DNA from: a candidate division FCPU426 bacterium
GTDB taxonomy: Bacteria > Oederibacteriota > PGYV01 > Palsa-1178
Direction of reading: 5' to 3'
Length of the DNA stretch: 64,000 bases
Assembly (NCBI GenBank): GCA_963840035.1
Contig: CAWIXE010000001.1
Span: 576,001-640,000, forward strand
This document shows, piece after piece, positions 11,058 to 62,998 of the stretch. The notes beneath the pieces were generated by a model. It worked only from the letters and a program-made list of their open reading frames with translations, did no database searches and had not been told where the DNA came from. Position numbers and translations under genes: made by a program. How positions within the stretch are numbered: the stretch's first letter is position 1; each line of letters begins with the position of its first letter.

Positions 11058-12167
11058 ATGAGTAAGAAAGCAGGTTTAGCAAAGCATAAGTTCCTTTTGG
11101 GGGAGTTATTCTGTGGTCCTGGTGGTTTGGCTTTAGGTGCTATCAGTTCCGTCATTAAAAATAAGACCTCAAACTTAACAATTGGTCATTCATGGGCAAA
11201 TGATTACGATGAAGATACATGTAAAACCTATGCACATAATATATGCCCAAAAAGTCCTGAAACAGTTATATGTGAGGACGTTAGAAAACTAAATATTGAA
11301 AAACTTCCTGAAATTGACGCGTTTGCATATGGATTCCCTTGTAATGATTTTAGTATTGTAGGAAAACAAAAAGGTTTTGATGGAGAATTTGGACCATTAT
11401 ATACATATGGTGTCAAAATCATTAATAAATTTAGGCCAAAATTCTTTATTGCAGAAAATGTTGGCGGATTAAGAAACGCAAATGAAGGCAAGGCCTTTAA
11501 AAAGATATTACACGATTTACGTAGTTCGGGAAATGGTTATGAGTTGACGACTAACCTATACAAATCAGAAGAATATGGAGTCCCTCAGACAAGACATAGG
11601 ATAATAATAGTTGGAATAGATAAGAAATATGGCATGAGATTTGAAGTTCCAGCACCTACTACAAAAGGTGACCCTATTACAACAAGGGAAGCATTTGAAA
11701 ATCCAATAATACAAAAAGATGCGCCAAATAATGATTTTACAAAAGTGTCTGATGTAGTAATCGAACGGTTAAAACTAATAAAGCCCGGTCAAAATGTCTG
11801 GAATGCCGATTTACCTCAGCATTTGAAATTGAATGTAAAAGGTGCAAAATTAAGTCAAATTTATAAACGACTTGACCCAAATAAGCCATCCTATACGCTT
11901 ACTGGCAGTGGCGGAGGTGGCACGCATGGATATCATTATGAACACCCAAGGCCATTAACTAATCGTGAAAGAGCAAGAATTCAAACCTTTCCTGACTGGT
12001 TTACTTTTATTGGTTCAAGAGAGAGTGTAAGAAAGCAAATTGGTATGGCTGTACCTGTGAAACTATCAAATATCATTTTTACATCTGTTTTGAAAATGTT
12101 TGCACATATCGATTATCCAAGTACGAAACCAAGTGTTGAAGAAGAAACGCAAGAGGTCGTATTTTAA
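11058..12167 (+). CDS. C5-cytosine DNA methyltransferase
   Basis: Motifs ELFCGPGG, GFPCNDFS, ENV, PQTRHR, RERARIQTFP, QIGMAV. Confidence 0.96.
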   Translation: MSKKAGLAKHKFLLGELFCGPGGLALGAISSVIKNKTSNLTIGHSWANDYDEDTCKTYAHNICPKSPETVICEDVRKLNIEKLPEIDAFAYGFPCNDFSIVGKQKGFDGEFGPLYTYGVKIINKFRPKFFIAENVGGLRNANEGKAFKKILHDLRSSGNGYELTTNLYKSEEYGVPQTRHRIIIVGIDKKYGMRFEVPAPTTKGDPITTREAFENPIIQKDAPNNDFTKVSDVVIERLKLIKPGQNVWNADLPQHLKLNVKGAKLSQIYKRLDPNKPSYTLTGSGGGGTHGYHYEHPRPLTNRERARIQTFPDWFTFIGSRESVRKQIGMAVPVKLSNIIFTSVLKMFAHIDYPSTKPSVEEETQEVVF

Positions 12168-12185
12168 TAATAAAAGGGGTAAAAA

Positions 12186-13154
12186 ATGACTGCAGAAGAA
12201 GTTCTACTCAAAATTTCGGAATTTATCCATACAAGCCCCGAGGAAAGCGCAAAAATATTTGAAAAAGCAGTAGCGAGCAAAGAGATTACCGATGACAAAG
12301 ATACCGGTCTGATAGATGACTGGTTTAATAACAGATTTAAATCCAACATTGTATTTATAGACCAAGAAGGTTATGCAAAAATGTGCATTGATGCGCTTAA
12401 AATTGTTGGAACTATTGCGGCCACTGATTATGGAAGTAGCAGACAACGAGACCTCGGCCAATTGTGGGCAGATATGACTCGTGGATATTTAGGTGAACTT
12501 GCTTTTACAAAATTGTTGAAGGAAAGATGGGATATAGATTCCACATTAGACCACAGTGCAGGGGCATTGGACGATTTTATAAACTTAGACATCCACAAAA
12601 TCAAAAAGCCAAACGAACTTGAACGCCCTCCAAAGTTGAACATTGGAATAAAAACAACAAAATGGAATGGCATATGGCTTGATATCCCAGGAGACCAATT
12701 TAATCATTCAGATATCCATATATTTATAAAAGTTGGTACTGGTAGAGACCATTTATTTGCTTACTTTAGAGAAATAAGTGTATTTAAAGATAAAATTTTG
12801 AAAAAAGGAACTGATAGTGGCATCTTGAACCAGTCAGAAGCGGATGATTTGTATGATAAACTTCCAAAATTTCATTCCATCCCCGCATACATTTGTGGCT
12901 TTGTTGAAAGAGATAAAAAATATAAAAAACTATCATATGGTGGGTCGAAAGGTAGAAAAAATTATAAAATTGACGAATGGCATGGTCCAATGGAACCGTC
13001 TGACTTACCAATTATAAAAGAAAAAGAAGAAGTTTACGGTAAAGTTTCCTTTGAAGGTATCGGTGAATTTTCAAATAGCAAACGATACTTATTTAATGCT
13101 GGTAATTTATTATGGAAAAAAGAAGATTGGGACAAAGTTATAGAAAGGATTTAA
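12186..13154 (+). CDS. Putative type II restriction endonuclease
   Basis: Directly downstream of the MTase; GYLGELAF...D...IGIKTT resembles a PD-(D/E)xK variant. Confidence 0.6.
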   Translation: MTAEEVLLKISEFIHTSPEESAKIFEKAVASKEITDDKDTGLIDDWFNNRFKSNIVFIDQEGYAKMCIDALKIVGTIAATDYGSSRQRDLGQLWADMTRGYLGELAFTKLLKERWDIDSTLDHSAGALDDFINLDIHKIKKPNELERPPKLNIGIKTTKWNGIWLDIPGDQFNHSDIHIFIKVGTGRDHLFAYFREISVFKDKILKKGTDSGILNQSEADDLYDKLPKFHSIPAYICGFVERDKKYKKLSYGGSKGRKNYKIDEWHGPMEPSDLPIIKEKEEVYGKVSFEGIGEFSNSKRYLFNAGNLLWKKEDWDKVIERI

Positions 13155-13258
13155 AATTAGGCAACATTATCCTAGCCGTCAATTATCATAACTGCTAACC
13201 CATTGAAATAGGTTGACATTTTACCTCTGGAAATTCAACGAAAGAGGAGGTAAAATAT

Positions 13259-14833
13259 ATGTGGTTCATGAAGAAAAAGAAAGAAAAGGGAAAGAGAAAA
13301 TACACAAAAAGCGACTCCGCCGGTAAAATCTACTCAAAAGAAGAAAAACTAAAACTGCTAAAAGAATTTGAACAGATAGGTGCGCCTATTACTATGTTCT
13401 GTAAGTGGTATGGAATGGGCGTCGGTACTTTTAAAAGCTGGCAAGAAAGGTACAAAACAGGCGGTGAAGAGGGGCTGGAAGATAACCGCGGCGGCAAAGT
13501 AGCGCAGGAAGTACCGGAAGCGGTAAAAGCGGAAATAGTCAAATTAAAGCTGGAAAATCCCGGAATTGGAGTTAAGAAAATCGGGGATTATTTGATGCGC
13601 AATAAGTTCGTAAAAGTATGCCGCGACGGTATTGAAAAAGTCCTCCGAACCGACCCTCAGACAGCAACAATGGTACAGGAAAAAAGCCTGCGGCATGGAA
13701 ATAGTCAAAAGGAACCGCAGCGTTTTGAAAGAAGCAAACCCGGCGACATGTACCAGATGGATATAATGACATTTATGCTGCAGGGGCTGTACCGGATATA
13801 TGTAATAGCATGTCTGGATGATTATTCGCGGTTTGTCGTCAGTATAGGGGTATTTCGGAACCAAACCAGCGACAGGGTCCTGGATGTGCTAAAAAACGCG
13901 ATAGAAAAGTACGGCATGCCAAAAGAAGTGCTTACTGATAACGGCAGGCAGTTTGCCAGTTGGAGGGGGAAAAGCACATTTCAAAAATTCCTTACAAGAA
14001 GCGGAATAAGCCATTTGAGAAGCCGGCCGTATCATCCCCAAACCTGCGGAAAAGTTGAATCGCTCTGGCGGAATATGTACCAGGAATTACTAAGTAAAGA
14101 GCCGATATCCAGCTTTGAAGACGCGCAGGAAAAGATAGGAAAATGGGTGGAATGGTATAACTTCAAAAGGCCGCATCAGGGGATTGATGGGTTACTGCCT
14201 GCTGACAGGTTTTTCAGCGTTGAAAAGTCGGTGCGTGAAGTTATGGAAAAAGGGGCAGGAATGGTAAAAGACGCGCTAATTGTTGACCCGAGAAAATTAA
14301 AAGAGCCTATGTATTTAATCGGAAAAATAGGCGGAAAAGAAATACGGGTAATAGCAAAAGAAGGAAGTGTTATGGTTGAGGGGTTAGATGCAGTGGAGGA
14401 AAAAAAGGAAAATAAAGAAAATAAGGGGGTAATTGAAAATGGAACAGGAGAAAATTCAGCAGGAAATGATGGAACAGAAATCCACGAAGTACTACAGGGA
14501 AATCCCATACGAGGTGAAGTTTCAGGCAGTACTGAAAGTAATGGCAAAGGAAAAGAAGGTGAAACAGGTCTGCGAGGAGATGGATATATCGAGGGAGACG
14601 TTCCGGGAGTGGAAGAAAATAGCGCTGGAAGGGATAGCCAGGGCGTTCCTGAAGACGGAGAAGAGAGGCAGGAAGCCGAAGAACTACGTGAAGGAAGAGG
14701 ATCTGAGGGAAACAGTGACAAAGGCGCAGGAAGAACAGCGGAAGCTGGAGGAAAAGATCCGGATACTGGAGGAAGAAAAGAAAAAGGCGACACAGGAACT
14801 GCAGATAGCCAGGAAAGCAACGAGCTTCTTTGA
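13259..14833 (+). CDS. IS481-like transposase (HTH + rve core)
   Basis: YQMDI, LDDYSRF, LTDNGRQF, HPQTCGKVE, YNFKRPHQGI. Confidence 0.92.
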   Translation: MWFMKKKKEKGKRKYTKSDSAGKIYSKEEKLKLLKEFEQIGAPITMFCKWYGMGVGTFKSWQERYKTGGEEGLEDNRGGKVAQEVPEAVKAEIVKLKLENPGIGVKKIGDYLMRNKFVKVCRDGIEKVLRTDPQTATMVQEKSLRHGNSQKEPQRFERSKPGDMYQMDIMTFMLQGLYRIYVIACLDDYSRFVVSIGVFRNQTSDRVLDVLKNAIEKYGMPKEVLTDNGRQFASWRGKSTFQKFLTRSGISHLRSRPYHPQTCGKVESLWRNMYQELLSKEPISSFEDAQEKIGKWVEWYNFKRPHQGIDGLLPADRFFSVEKSVREVMEKGAGMVKDALIVDPRKLKEPMYLIGKIGGKEIRVIAKEGSVMVEGLDAVEEKKENKENKGVIENGTGENSAGNDGTEIHEVLQGNPIRGEVSGSTESNGKGKEGETGLRGDGYIEGDVPGVEENSAGRDSQGVPEDGEERQEAEELREGRGSEGNSDKGAGRTAEAGGKDPDTGGRKEKGDTGTADSQESNELL

Positions 14834-14939
14834 AAAAAACGATGAAGACGGCGCAAAAAAAAACGCCAATATGCGGAAAGTGTTAAAAGAAATATACTCA
14901 GAAGTGCCGAAGAAACCGTACAAAACGGAGGAAGTATAA
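14433..14939 (+). CDS. IS3-type OrfA (HTH + coiled coil)
   Basis: VKQVCEEMDISRETFREWKK HTH; leucine-zipper-like region; A9 slippery run at 14855-14863. Confidence 0.8.
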   Translation: MKMEQEKIQQEMMEQKSTKYYREIPYEVKFQAVLKVMAKEKKVKQVCEEMDISRETFREWKKIALEGIARAFLKTEKRGRKPKNYVKEEDLRETVTKAQEEQRKLEEKIRILEEEKKKATQELQIARKATSFFEKNDEDGAKKNANMRKVLKEIYSEVPKKPYKTEEV

Positions 14940-15904
14940 AGGCGTATTTTGATTCAATCGGGGTTCCAAGGGAGTATTATTATGCGTGGAAAAAGAAAGA
15001 TACCCTGGAACCCCAAAAGACAGGGCCGAAACATGCGCCGTGGGCCTTGTCTGGTGAAACAATACTCCGGGTGCTGGAATTAAAACGGAGGTTTTCGGAA
15101 ATATCAACTAATTATGTTTTGGCAATAAAAGCGGGTATATCGCCAAGCAGCGTTGCAAAAATAGTTTATGAGTATTTTGGGCCCAGGAAAAAGCAAAAAG
15201 CGGGAAAGAAAGAGTACAAGTCAGTTGAATGGCTAAAAAAGCATGTCAGCTGGGCGCTAGATACGATTAAAATACGCTGCGAAGAAGGGTATGTGTATGT
15301 TCAGCTGGTATTTGAGGAGTACTCAAGGTGTGTGCTTGGTTGGATTATGAGTTATTCAAATACCGGTGAAAAGGCGAAAATCCTGCTTGAACGCGTGATG
15401 AACGAGCAGGGAATAAAACCGCTTGTGGTTAAAACTGACAGGGGTTCTGAGTTTCAGAACGAAGTATTAATAAGTTATTTGAAAGAAAAAGAGATTCTCA
15501 CGATGCCCAGCCCCGGGCATTATCCGCTTTTCAACGGGAAACTGGAGCGCGAAAATCAGATATTTGAGAAATATCTGAAAACTGAAAAAGGAGGGTTAAA
15601 TTACGAAAAAGTATACGCCAAATTTGAAAGAGCGATTTATGAGATTAATCACGAAATGCCGCGGCGTATATTTGACGGCAAAACAAGCGCTGAAGTTTTC
15701 AAAAACGGAGAAATATACAAAAACGAAGAAAAGCATGAGCTAATTAAAAAAGCTGAAAATGCGATTGCGGAAATTGAAAAACAGAAAATACCGGGACTGG
15801 ATAAACTTGACGTTGTGAGGAAGGCCGTGGTAAAATCAGTTGTAGATATGGGGTTGTGTTTGATCAAATCCGGAGAACAAAATGTCAACCAATTTGCGGG
15901 GTAA
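14855..15904 (+). CDS. Second DDE transposase (OrfB), probably reached by -1 frameshift
   Basis: The -1 frame is open from the A9 run and reads KRQYAESVKRNIL...IGVPREYYYAWKK, then WALDT, KTDRGSEF, NGKLER. Confidence 0.85.
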   Translation, partial: KKKRQYAESVKRNILRSAEETVQNGGSIKAYFDSIGVPREYYYAWKKKDTLEPQKTGPKHAPWALSGETILRVLELKRRFSEISTNYVLAIKAGISPSSVAKIVYEYFGPRKKQKAGKKEYKSVEWLKKHVSWALDTIKIRCEEGYVYVQLVFEEYSRCVLGWIMSYSNTGEKAKILLERVMNEQGIKPLVVKTDRGSEFQNEVLISYLKEKEILTMPSPGHYPLFNGKLERENQIFEKYLKTEKGGLNYEKVYAKFERAIYEINHEMPRRIFDGKTSAEVFKNGEIYKNEEKHELIKKAENAIAEIEKQKIPGLDKLDVVRKAVVKSVVDMGLCLIKSGEQNVNQFAG

Positions 15905-15923
15905 AAAGTGACAATAATTGACA

Positions 15924-16447
15924 GGCAGGACAATCATGAAGACCCTGAGTTTATCGCAGCGTGTAAGAAGAGCGATGCTGAAAAGGAACTGAGAGAAGCC
16001 AACTTAAGACGCGATTTTGGGGCAAAAGTTCTCAGTGAGCAAGGCAAAGATAAGACAATTGTGTTGGATAAGGTTGGTATGATATTCCTTGCGAGGTCTG
16101 GTAAGGCACTATATACGACCTCTTGCGAGATAGAGGTAGATGGCGGATACACGGCCGAGATAGGGTTTAGAGAGGACACATACCCGGAACTGTTGCGGAT
16201 ATTGAAACAAAGGTTACCTGAGCATTACAGGACAAAGATAACTGACAAACTTGAAAAGGAGTACACAAAGCCCATATACATACCCTGGTTCACAGCGTTT
16301 GACTTTCGAATCGAAGCAGTGTTAGGTTCGCCATTACACCATCAGGATGGCAGAGAGTTTATCCCTTTCTATGCCACTAAGGTTGAGGAAATTAGAGTGG
16401 AATACAGTAAACGTAAGAAGAGGCAGTCAAAAAAACCACAAGTTTAG
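15924..16447 (+). pseudogene. Hypothetical protein, apparently 5'-truncated by the IS
   Basis: The start called in the ORF track (GTG 15908) lies inside the right IR. Confidence 0.5.
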
Positions 16448-59045: not shown

Positions 59046-59423
59046 ATGGATAAGAATAAAATCGAAGAAGCAGACACAATAGAGGTAGAACCGGGAAATA
59101 CAGAACGGATGATAAAACGGGTTAAAAGGCACACCAAAAAGCGTTATACCGCCGAAGAAAAAATCAGGATAGTCCTCGAAGCATTCCGTAAGGAAATCAG
59201 CGTGGCAGAGCTATGCCGCAGAGAAGGTATCCACGCGCAGGTATATTACGGCTGGTTGAGGGACTTCATGGAAGCAGGCAAAGAACGGCTTCAGGGTGAT
59301 GTTTTAAGACAGGCAAACAAAGGCGAAGTTAAGGACCTGAAGAAAGAGAATGAACGGTTAAAGAACGTCATCGGGGATATGGCTCTTGAGAATAACTTGT
59401 TAAAAAAAATTATGAAAAAGTAG
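59046..59423 (+). CDS. IS3 OrfA
   Basis: RYTAEEKIRIV...VAELCRREGI HTH; A8 slippery run at 59402-59409. Confidence 0.93.
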   Translation: MDKNKIEEADTIEVEPGNTERMIKRVKRHTKKRYTAEEKIRIVLEAFRKEISVAELCRREGIHAQVYYGWLRDFMEAGKERLQGDVLRQANKGEVKDLKKENERLKNVIGDMALENNLLKKIMKK

Positions 59424-59434
59424 AAAAGCCGCAC

Positions 59435-60421
59435 TTGGGCATGGACGCCGAGGAAAAAACCGTGCTTTTAGCCCGGTTGAGGGCAATAAGGCGGGGCGAA
59501 AAACGCAGTACGCTCAAGACCCTGAAAATACCCGAATCAACGTATTACAAGTGGAGAAAAGTTCTTTACGAGGAAGGCGTAGCCGGGCTGATGAAACAAA
59601 GAAAGCCCGCGATACCGTGGAACAAGCTTCTGCCTGAAGAGGAATCAGAAGTAGTGGCAGCTGCAAAAGAACACACGGAAATGTCGCCGAGAGAGATAGC
59701 GGTTTTGATAACGGACACAGGCACTTTCAGCGTCAGTGAAAAGACGGTGCAAAGGATCTTGAAAAGGCACGACCTGCTAGCTCTAAGGCCGAAGGAAGAG
59801 TATCCTGCCGCAAAAGAATGGCACACAAAGACTGCTTCGCCTGATGAAATCTGGCAAATGGATGGCACTGCGATGTTCGTAACTAACTGGGGCTATTACA
59901 AGTATATACCAGTGATTGACGACTACTCAAGAAGAGTCATGAATTCCAGGCTTATGTTGGACGAAAGCGGATACTCCGCGTCAGATGCGGTTGAGATATC
60001 GCTGGAGGAAGCAAAAAGTCTTGGACATGTGCTAAATAGGCACCCGGTAATGCTGACCGACAACGGGCCGGCCTTCAGCGGTTGGGTGTTATCTGACTAT
60101 CTCAATAACAAGGGTATTCGGCACATTTTTGGCAGACCATATCACCCGCAGACACAGGGCAAGGTTGAGAGGTTTAACAGGACAATTAAGGACCATCTAT
60201 TTGTAGTGAATTACGACAGCCCAGAAAAACTTCAGGAGGCTTTGACAGAAGGCGTTGCCTGGTACAACAACAGGCCACATGAATCACTACAAAACGTTAG
60301 TCCAAACGATGTCTATGCAGGTCGGAAGGAGGAAATCCTCGAGCGCAGGGCAAAGAAAAAGGAATTGACCATCGAAAGGCGCAAGGCGTATAATCTTAGC
60401 AAGGAGATTGGGAATGAATAA
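59435..60421 (+). CDS. IS3 OrfB (DDE), -1 frame to OrfA
   Basis: WQMDG, IDDYSR, LTDNGPAF, HPQTQGKVER. Confidence 0.93.
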   Translation: MGMDAEEKTVLLARLRAIRRGEKRSTLKTLKIPESTYYKWRKVLYEEGVAGLMKQRKPAIPWNKLLPEEESEVVAAAKEHTEMSPREIAVLITDTGTFSVSEKTVQRILKRHDLLALRPKEEYPAAKEWHTKTASPDEIWQMDGTAMFVTNWGYYKYIPVIDDYSRRVMNSRLMLDESGYSASDAVEISLEEAKSLGHVLNRHPVMLTDNGPAFSGWVLSDYLNNKGIRHIFGRPYHPQTQGKVERFNRTIKDHLFVVNYDSPEKLQEALTEGVAWYNNRPHESLQNVSPNDVYAGRKEEILERRAKKKELTIERRKAYNLSKEIGNE

Positions 60422-61622: not shown

Positions 61623-62000
61623 ATGGATAAGAATAAAATCGAAGAAGCAGACACAATAGAGGTAGAACCGGGAAATACAGAACGGATGATAAAACGGGTT
61701 AAAAGGCACACCAAAAAGCGTTATACCGCCGAAGAAAAAATCAGGATAGTCCTCGAAGCATTCCGTAAGGAAATCAGCGTGGCAGAGCTATGCCGCAGAG
61801 AAGGTATCCACGCGCAGGTATATTACGGCTGGTTGAGGGACTTCATGGAAGCAGGCAAAGAACGGCTTCAGGGTGATGTTTTAAGACAGGCAAACAAAGG
61901 CGAAGTTAAGGACCTGAAGAAAGAGAATGAACGGTTAAAGAACGTCATCGGGGATATGGCTCTTGAGAATAACTTGTTAAAAAAAATTATGAAAAAGTAG
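61623..62000 (+). CDS. IS3 OrfA
   Basis: Protein identical to copy 1. Confidence 0.93.
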   Translation: MDKNKIEEADTIEVEPGNTERMIKRVKRHTKKRYTAEEKIRIVLEAFRKEISVAELCRREGIHAQVYYGWLRDFMEAGKERLQGDVLRQANKGEVKDLKKENERLKNVIGDMALENNLLKKIMKK

Positions 62001-62011
62001 AAAAGCCGCAC

Positions 62012-62998
62012 TTGGGCATGGACGCCGAGGAAAAAACCGTGCTTTTAGCCCGGTTGAGGGCAATAAGGCGGGGTGAAAAACGTAGTACGCTCAAGACCCT
62101 GAAAATACCAGAATCAACGTATTACAAGTGGAGAAAAGTTCTTTACGAGGAAGGCGTAGCCGGGCTGATGAAACAAAGAAAGCCTGTGATACCGTGGAAC
62201 AAGCTTCTGCCTGAAGAAGAAGTTGAAGTCGTGGCAGCAGCAAAAGAACACACGGAAATGTCGCCAAGAGAGATAGCGGTTTTGATAACGGATACAGGTA
62301 CTTTCAGTGTCAGTGAAAAGACCGTGCAGAGGATCCTGAAGAGGCACAATCTTATTGCACTCAGGCCGAAGGAAGAGCAGCCTGCCGCAAAAGAATGGCA
62401 CACAAAAACAGCCTCGCCTGATGAAATCTGGCAGATGGATGGAACCGTGATGTTCGTAACTAACTGGGGCTATTACAAGTACTTGCCAGTGATTGACGAC
62501 TACTCAAGAAGGGTCATGAATTCCAGGCTTATGTTTGACGAGAGCGGATACTCCGCGTCAGATGCGGTTGAGATATCGCTGGAGGAAGCAAAAAGTCTTG
62601 GACATGTGCTAAATAGGCACCCAGTGATGCTGACCGACAACGGCCCGGCTTTCAGCGGTTGGGTGTTATCTGATTACCTCAATAACAAGGGCATCAGGCA
62701 CATCTTTGGAAGGCCATACCACCCACAAACGCAGGGTAAGGTTGAGAGGTTTAACCGGACGATTAAGGATCACCTTTTTGTTGTAAATTACGACAGTCCA
62801 GAAAAACTGCAGGAGGCGTTGACAGAAGGTGTTGCCTGGTACAACAACAGACCGCATGAAGCGCTGCAGAACGTAAGCCCAAATGATGTTTATGCCGGAC
62901 GAAAGGAGGAGGTACTTGAACGCAGGGCGAAGAAAAAGGAATTGACCATCGAAAGGCGCAAGGCGTATAATCTTAGCAAGGAGATTGGGAATGAATAA
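62012..62998 (+). CDS. IS3 OrfB (DDE)
   Basis: Same motifs; 10 aa differences from copy 1. Confidence 0.93.
   Translation: MGMDAEEKTVLLARLRAIRRGEKRSTLKTLKIPESTYYKWRKVLYEEGVAGLMKQRKPVIPWNKLLPEEEVEVVAAAKEHTEMSPREIAVLITDTGTFSVSEKTVQRILKRHNLIALRPKEEQPAAKEWHTKTASPDEIWQMDGTVMFVTNWGYYKYLPVIDDYSRRVMNSRLMFDESGYSASDAVEISLEEAKSLGHVLNRHPVMLTDNGPAFSGWVLSDYLNNKGIRHIFGRPYHPQTQGKVERFNRTIKDHLFVVNYDSPEKLQEALTEGVAWYNNRPHEALQNVSPNDVYAGRKEEVLERRAKKKELTIERRKAYNLSKEIGNE

Follow-up and report, generated by a model that had tools for sequence, protein, structure and literature searches.

How a single insertion sequence could need two transposases is the question raised by a locus in the window analysed here, a 64,000-nucleotide stretch of contig CAWIXE010000001.1 (positions 576,001 to 640,000) from a candidate division FCPU426 bacterium. 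To our knowledge, DDE insertion sequences (IS) use one catalytic enzyme, and their target is cut across a short stagger. The element at 13168-15932 of the window carries two DDE enzymes, T1 and B, on three overlapping plus-strand reading frames (T1, OrfA and B). Our analysis indicated that it represents a two-transposase family, and movement of this family as one unit is well supported because the source genome (G000) holds three copies without a single difference, the T1 and B genes occur together whichever of them is used for the search, their trees are congruent, both are under purifying selection, and no nesting was detected. The features of the element are as follows.

13168..15932, plus strand: whole insertion sequence, with identical copies at G000 C1:344062-341298 and C2:832490-829726
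13168..13222, plus strand: left inverted repeat (IR) with tip TAT, where most relatives have TGT; inner box GGTTGACA spans 13211-13218
13259..14833, plus strand: T1, IS481-type DDE transposase of 524 amino acids (aa), helix-turn-helix (HTH)-HTH-RNase H, with two HTH matches and Pfam rve at 2.5e-20
14439..14939, plus strand: OrfA, HTH and predicted coiled coil, in the +1 frame over the T1 tail, matching HTH_29, HTH_Tnp_1 and HTH_28
14846..15904 (open frame), plus strand: B, second DDE protein, HTH-HTH-RNase H with a C-terminal helical hairpin, Pfam rve at 1.3e-10
14855..14864, plus strand: predicted -1 frameshift site, an A9C run with the phased motif A AAA AAC at 14858-14864
15879..15932, minus strand: right inverted repeat, tip TGT, overlapping the stop of B

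The boundaries of the 2,765-bp element were set by the bases common to the three genome copies, which are 100% identical and lie between six different flanks; the element is intact and recently copied. An initial annotation of the locus had described a single pair of ~47-bp IRs enclosing 13177..15923. The single pair was retained, and the repeats were extended to ~55 bp, since the true tips lie 9 bp outside the earlier limits at each side. Repeats of ~55 bp, with the inner box near nucleotide (nt) 44 from the tips, were also found among 41 relatives with detectable ends. Of the two boxes that had been regarded as conserved, the inner box GGTTGACA is kept in most family ends; the outer box GTCAATTAT and its inversion relative to TTGAC are peculiar to the window element and not family-wide. 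The element begins with TAT and ends with ACA (i.e. TGT). Across 30 dereplicated family elements the right tip was TGT in every case (30/30), and the left tip varied, being mostly TGT and also TAT or TGC; left tips TGG and TGA were seen in a separate comparison of family copies. The ends are thus asymmetric and their tips unequal. When the element was scanned with a family-end profile, its two ends scored 35.5 and 17.9 and the best internal site 2.0; no internal IS ends were found, in agreement with the initial annotation, and the possibility of one IS nested within another was checked in this way. No open reading frame (ORF) or Pfam match for an AAA+ ATPase partner (TnsC or IstB) was present inside the element. 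The element is active and autonomous, with one TGT/TAT end pair enclosing two intact, co-inherited DDE transposases.

T1 carries its catalytic triad at D168 (13760), D227 (13937) and E267 (14057). It scored 218.7 bits on the IS481 model NF033577, just under the cutoff of 224, and 51.6 bits against a cutoff of 250 on the IS1202 model NF033594. A quick IQ-TREE run with 17 IS481-like and 5 IS3 references placed T1 among the IS481 and IS3 enzymes without support for monophyly. Its AlphaFold model (pLDDT 73.5) showed an RNase H transposase fold, for which the top Foldseek matches were IstA, TnsB and retroviral integrases. Beyond the core, T1 has a family-specific C-terminal domain (~aa 319-378), followed by a low-complexity tail over OrfA. 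OrfA is preceded by its own Shine-Dalgarno-like sequence, and in 9/9 pairs the A frame was better conserved than the overlapping T1-tail frame; the tail is therefore likely a by-product.

A -1 slip at 14858-14864 is predicted to yield an OrfAB protein of ~488 aa. All 14 elements of the window element's subclade (14/14) have a phased A-rich heptamer within the A/B overlap, and no stable hairpin that might serve as a frameshift stimulator was found downstream of the motif (z -0.12). The triad of B comprises D at 15260, D at 15437 and E at 15545, with D-35-E spacing. B matched the IS481 model over positions 6-282 of 284 with 82 bits (cutoff 224), and the B frame alone, scored without the fused OrfAB, reached 67.7 bits on the IS3 model NF033516 (cutoff 160). 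Both proteins have two HTHs, and their colinearity extends from the first of these through the RNase H core (hhalign 99.9%). The AlphaFold model of B (pLDDT 90.5), also of RNase H transposase fold, gave Z values of 15-19 to integrases, TnsB and MuA. In the same placement tree B formed one separate clade (SH-aLRT 98) with long branches, apart from the 5 IS3 references. The initial annotation had thus correctly recognized an IS481-like enzyme and a second DDE gene, with intact triads and overlapping genes; its label of IS3-like OrfAB fits the OrfA/B layout and the slip motif, and does not fit B as a plain IS3 OrfB, given the IS481 match and the clade of its own.

The proposal of a two-transposase family, also made at that stage, was borne out when homologues were collected from both sides. 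A metagenome scan with the B alignment gave 113 confirmed matches, and among the best 80 of these 113, T1 lay upstream of B in 57 (two of the T1 matches being weak); the remaining 23 loci have less than 700 nt of upstream sequence, too short for T1. The reverse scan with the T1 alignment gave 579 confirmed genome matches, of which 80 were analysed together with 2 viral loci. Among 43 T1-clade loci, 7 end too early, and a second DDE gene was present in 35 of the 36 with room for one. These 36 consist of 34 with B by profile, 1 with a divergent, frameshifted second DDE gene, and 1 in which T1 is cut after the core. B accompanied none of 39 ordinary IS481-like loci (0/39). Movement of each gene alone, which had been named as a contrary explanation, was also checked, and no intact element with just T1 or just B was seen among the loci examined.

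In 251 sampled genomes of one phylum, a strong B match occurred in 6, with T1 upstream in 5 and a broken right half in the other. Among 99 genomes of the source phylum, G008 and G010 are the only others with a B match, and they share the layout. By record titles, the family reaches at least 12 named phyla, among them Elusimicrobiota, Planctomycetota, Verrucomicrobiota, Nitrospirota, Thermodesulfobacteriota, Myxococcota and Bdellovibrionota. It is common in uncultured phyla, where it is probably annotated as two unrelated transposases. Its members range from 2.7 to 4.8 kb and differ between T1 and B: some have a -1 slip motif, others have the A and B frames in +1 phase, and others again have two A-like genes. 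In the Bdellovibrionota loci L133 and L139, B appears directly after T1 with no separately detected OrfA. The source genome also holds a second, divergent member (L018, G000 C2:1597074-1599970; identity 57% for T1, 29% for A and 30% for B), whose ORFs are intact and for which no clear inverted repeats were found. Protein P0134 is an in-frame fusion of a whole T1 with the C-terminal half of a B-like core, perhaps an internal deletion derivative. Viral contigs gave no match to B or protein P0063, and the T1 alignment matched the 2 viral loci mentioned above. Among the plasmid matches listed there was no family member, only distant IS3/IS481 relatives, and another plasmid search was matchless.

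Both enzymes have kept their active sites. The three catalytic positions were conserved in 49/49, 51/51 and 56/56 aligned rows of T1 and in 81/81, 84/84 and 84/84 aligned rows of B (redundant sets). The dN/dS ratios of the cores, obtained for 16 of the 18 pairs tried, lay at 0.00-0.34 in T1 and at 0.11-0.25 in B, so both catalytic cores are under purifying selection. The T1 and B trees (FastTree, 57 T1-B pairs dereplicated at 90%) are congruent: their distances correlate with a Mantel rho of 0.60 (permutation maximum 0.22), and they share 28 of 54 splits, compared with 0.2 at random.

The most telling feature of the family is the absence of a target duplication together with flanks that look like deletion junctions. 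We compared the flanks of 63 copies whose ends were delimited exactly, either by copy comparison or by the end profile (the left tip of L198 being uncertain by 3 bp). They come from 9 multi-copy genomes, and 9 of the 63 were added after the pattern had been noticed. Matches of 0, 1 and 2 bp between the two flanks of the same copy occurred in 43, 15 and 5 copies, which is the level expected by chance (44.7, 12.1 and 5.0), and a duplication of more than 2 bp was found in 0/63. A permissive search, applied alike to controls and family, detected duplications of 6-16 bp in 11 of the 26 single-gene IS481-like elements that served as controls, whereas nothing longer than 4 bp turned up in 29 family loci; 1 of the 26 control rows (L147) is a broken family member. 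As a further control, an IS21-like element of ~2.28 kb sits inside four family copies of G099 (L235-L238), at different spots around the A-like genes, and is flanked there by duplications of 5-8 bp in three copies and of 55 bp in one.

Many of the ends run into an ORF of at least 150 aa (25 of 58 on the left, 26 of 50 on the right), and in some flanking ORFs a Pfam domain is cut at the junction. Copy 3 of the source genome follows 1,616 codons of a giant gene and is itself followed by the final 34 codons of a C-terminal domain; the homolog in G009 extends ~3,000 aa (~9 kb) past the break, and G000 lacks this middle part. In copy 2, a 198-bp 5′ piece of pcrA is joined to an RHS remnant. Elsewhere, copies lie between a methyltransferase and a headless recombinase, or between a helicase and an unrelated gene. 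The pcrA piece, at the left end of copy 2 (G000 C1:344063-344260), comprises promoter and 5′ end, is 89% identical to the intact gene at C1:496413, and is possibly DNA from a related strain. No junction flank was common to two copies, no target consensus appeared at the 10 positions beside either end, and no empty site was found in relatives of G100. Remnants of RHS-core, RHS-repeat or PT-HINT type adjoin copies at L016:1641-2309, L002:2657-3472, L223, L225 and L231. Polymorphic-toxin genes and giant surface genes may thus be targets that are often hit and tolerated.

Several other accounts of these flanks were tried and not accepted. Mis-assembly at repeats predicts a partner for most ends; few ends have one, none does in the single-contig genome G100, and other IS in like assemblies keep their duplications. 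Blunt insertion without loss does not agree with the identifiable in-frame joins, which connect different genes or different parts of long genes. A crossed 5-bp duplication with shuffled flanks seems unlikely, the G105 excess being weak, G301 giving one match, and the joins rebuilding no convincing genes. The figures behind this are four cross-copy 5-bp flank matches in G105 (null mean 0.85; 1.3% of offsets reach 4). Over lengths of 5-10 bp there were five cross-copy matches in G105, one of them of 10 bp, and one 6-bp match in G301, with none of exactly 8 bp; the join implied by the 10-bp match gave no convincing gene. No circle joints were found in the one listed DNA run, which covered only ~300 bp.

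The family could not be matched to any of the known systems with which it was compared. It shares TGT...ACA ends with IS481 elements (NF033577; e.g. ISRm20 and the IS481 of P. fluorescens SBW25, PMC11708052), and T1 is an HTH-HTH-RNase H DDE enzyme near the model cutoff, within the IS481/IS3 radiation. In contrast to IS481 elements of ~1-1.3 kb with a single transposase ORF (PMC11708052, and as in our controls), the family measures 2.7-4.8 kb and adds a second DDE gene, OrfA and the T1 C-terminal domain, giving three ORFs and two DDE cores, and its 63/63 copies without duplication differ from the 11/26 controls that have one. In the window subclade, OrfA is followed in -1 phase by a D-35-E frame, and an A-rich slip motif is present, which is reminiscent of IS3 elements such as IS911, IS150 and ISPpu29. 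Unlike them, the family has an extra full transposase upstream, two catalytic cores and no duplications, B lies below the NF033516 cutoff in a separate clade, and in other subclades the A and B frames are in +1 phase or two A-like genes are present. The family thus falls outside both IS481 and IS3 in ORF number, size, the model score of B, and duplications. Tn7, with TnsA and TnsB, resembles it in having two proteins and TGT/ACA ends; according to PMC11406308, only TnsB of Tn7 is a DDE enzyme, TnsC and target selectors are needed, and 5-bp duplications are made, whereas no ATPase gene occurs in the window element. Copies of IS6/IS26 also often lie at rearrangement junctions, there through replicative intramolecular events; as far as PMC7986276 describes them, these elements have one transposase and generally 8-bp repeats crossed between copies, whereas no convincing crossed repeats were found in the family. 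IS1202 elements have a related DDE domain, a right-end TGT, a relaxed left tip (Ta/gT) in one subgroup, and two-domain IRs; no second DDE gene is described in the accessible part of that report (10.1101/2022.12.17.520857), and the family showed no target preference. Closest in outcome are the IS insertions without target-site duplication (TSD) of Ngan et al. (2024, PMC11708052), in which an IS lies between non-adjacent host sequences; in that study these are a minority outcome (14 of 83 events) of one-transposase elements, whereas in the family this is the only outcome seen. No description of a two-DDE layout was found in a literature search whose scope did not extend to ISfinder, subscription journals and supplements, and an entry filed under another family is possible. 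With two co-evolving DDE enzymes and never a duplication, the family appears new in architecture and product, although its parts are known domains.

A symmetric transposase multimer that attacks in a concerted manner leaves a short target duplication (PMC11708052). Because no copy has a duplication, two active sites are conserved, and the tips are unequal, we tentatively favour, at slightly less than an even chance, an asymmetric transpososome in which T1 and OrfAB would each join one end at its own, separate target site. Both enzymes would be catalytically needed, each 3′ end would be transferred separately and not across a fixed stagger of a few bases, and after repair or replication the element would have replaced the DNA lying between these target sites, which amounts to a deletion. 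The opposite geometry would put the element between long duplicated segments, which would be unstable and lost together with the element; such loss was seen for an IS481 copy (PMC11708052). T1 and B may act as a heteromer with division of labour, as the initial annotation had suggested. Free OrfA would regulate or bridge the ends, by likeness to the OrfA of the IS3 family, which regulates or bridges element ends. The broader claim, that this is an undescribed transposon class with two DDE enzymes, one per end, uncoupled joining, and a stretch of target replaced at each move, we hold with somewhat more reserve. If true, the family would be a natural "delete-and-insert" machine, and giant surface genes and RHS genes in many uncultured phyla would be trimmed by it. 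If separate enzymes handle the ends, each could be mutated alone, which is impossible with a homomeric transposase, and the system would be a possible starting point for tools that replace, and do not only insert, DNA. The family also makes directly testable whether IS copies at deletion junctions were made in one step or two.

The strongest rival, which we consider doubtful, is a two-step route: an ordinary insertion by one transposase would make a short duplication, and very frequent one-ended, replicative intramolecular attacks by the other, or by both, would then delete flanking DNA, always together with that duplication, giving the same final picture. Both adjacent deletion, the documented route for TSD-less IS150 copies (14/14; PMC11708052), and intramolecular replicative transposition are established (PMC11708052; PMC7986276 on IS6), and the four 5-bp matches in G105 and the 6-bp match in G301 also speak for it. 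However, deletion would have to far outrun insertion: a duplication is kept in 0/63 copies, and thus in none of the young sets, of 3, 6 and 6 members, that are identical or nearly so, whereas IS150 lost its duplication in just 14 of 68 events over 60,000 generations (PMC11708052). Moreover, the cross-matched joins rebuild no convincing genes, the complete chromosome of G100 has no cross match among its 6 copies, and the shared junction flanks expected from re-integrated deletion circles are not found between any copies. The conserved triads could also serve a Tn7-like division by strand, in which 3′ cleavage and joining fall to one enzyme, while its partner cuts either the 5′ strand or the target, the latter bluntly or at a second site, so that the excised element enters a double-strand gap or pre-existing break. 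For this unlikely scheme, Tn7 offers a precedent of a two-protein transposase (PMC11406308), and duplication-free insertion into breaks has been proposed before (PMC11708052); but TnsA is a different kind of endonuclease and Tn7 makes 5-bp duplications (PMC11406308), the two HTHs in each protein fit end-binding transposases better than an accessory nuclease, and no clean blunt insertion was found among the inspected junctions. That only one transposase is active, seems still less probable; the triad of the other would then be kept for a role that is structural, regulatory or unrelated, and the active enzyme by itself would account for the missing duplications: B is the faster-evolving, less constrained protein and T1 is frameshifted in 19 of 24 G105 copies, yet every aligned row of either protein, from at least 12 phyla, has an intact triad, and no intact one-gene element was seen. 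That an IS481 element and an IS3 element became nested or fused by chance, as the near-cutoff score of T1 and the IS3-like A/B layout might suggest, is very improbable, since internal ends are lacking, OrfA is overprinted on T1, B lies outside the IS3 clades, and the layout is kept over deep divergence with congruent trees.

Other observations weigh against the asymmetric transpososome, or against two enzymes bound to act together. The ~9 kb replaced by copy 3 is the only deletion that was sized. A partial correlation of repeat sequence with the enzymes (30 elements, pairs not independent) linked left nt 19-30 to T1 and right nt 19-30 to B, with the opposite assignment at nt 4-18, and the effect was weak and inconsistent across sub-regions. 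In the broadest B alignment (51 proteins) both D residues are invariant and the E is kept in at least 90%, not in all. Four pairs of well-supported T1 and B splits are in conflict, B evolves ~2.6 times faster than T1 (its tree is 2.6 times longer), and dS is higher in B than in T1 in several pairs, which suggests swapping of T1/B modules. Half-elements exist (the T1-only stump L134 and the B-only stump L309), and in-frame A-B fusion proteins among the 50%-cluster representatives could be stand-alone relatives. In G105, a frameshift just after the catalytic E of T1 affects 19 of 24 whole copies; if real, T1 would be dispensable in cis. It may be a long-read error hotspot or, alternatively, reflect the spread of defective copies, an artefact being conceivable because the indel size varies and intact copies are scattered on the tree. 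G105 as a whole holds 28 copies of a 4.5-kb subtype (L207-L234), in which the T1 frameshift lies at one site with indels of different sizes.

The neighbourhood of the element in the window was also inspected. Its flanks are occupied by the following features.

11058..13154, plus strand: left flank, a C5 DNA methyltransferase followed by a gene that matches no Pfam family, outside the element, ending 13 bp before the left tip
15935..16447, plus strand: right flank, a frame open for 170 codons, the one start listed for it being within the right repeat

The low-GC pair at 11058-13154 is likely a type II restriction-modification system, the second gene being the putative restriction enzyme. A homolog search with the right-flank frame returned only itself, and this frame is likely a host gene cut at its N-terminus. 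Farther downstream, at 59046-60421 and 61623-62998 of the window, there are two ordinary-looking IS3-like orfA/orfB copies that are 94% identical over 1,548 bp, and the copy at 59046-60421 ends at an RHS-core-like remnant and small orphan genes.

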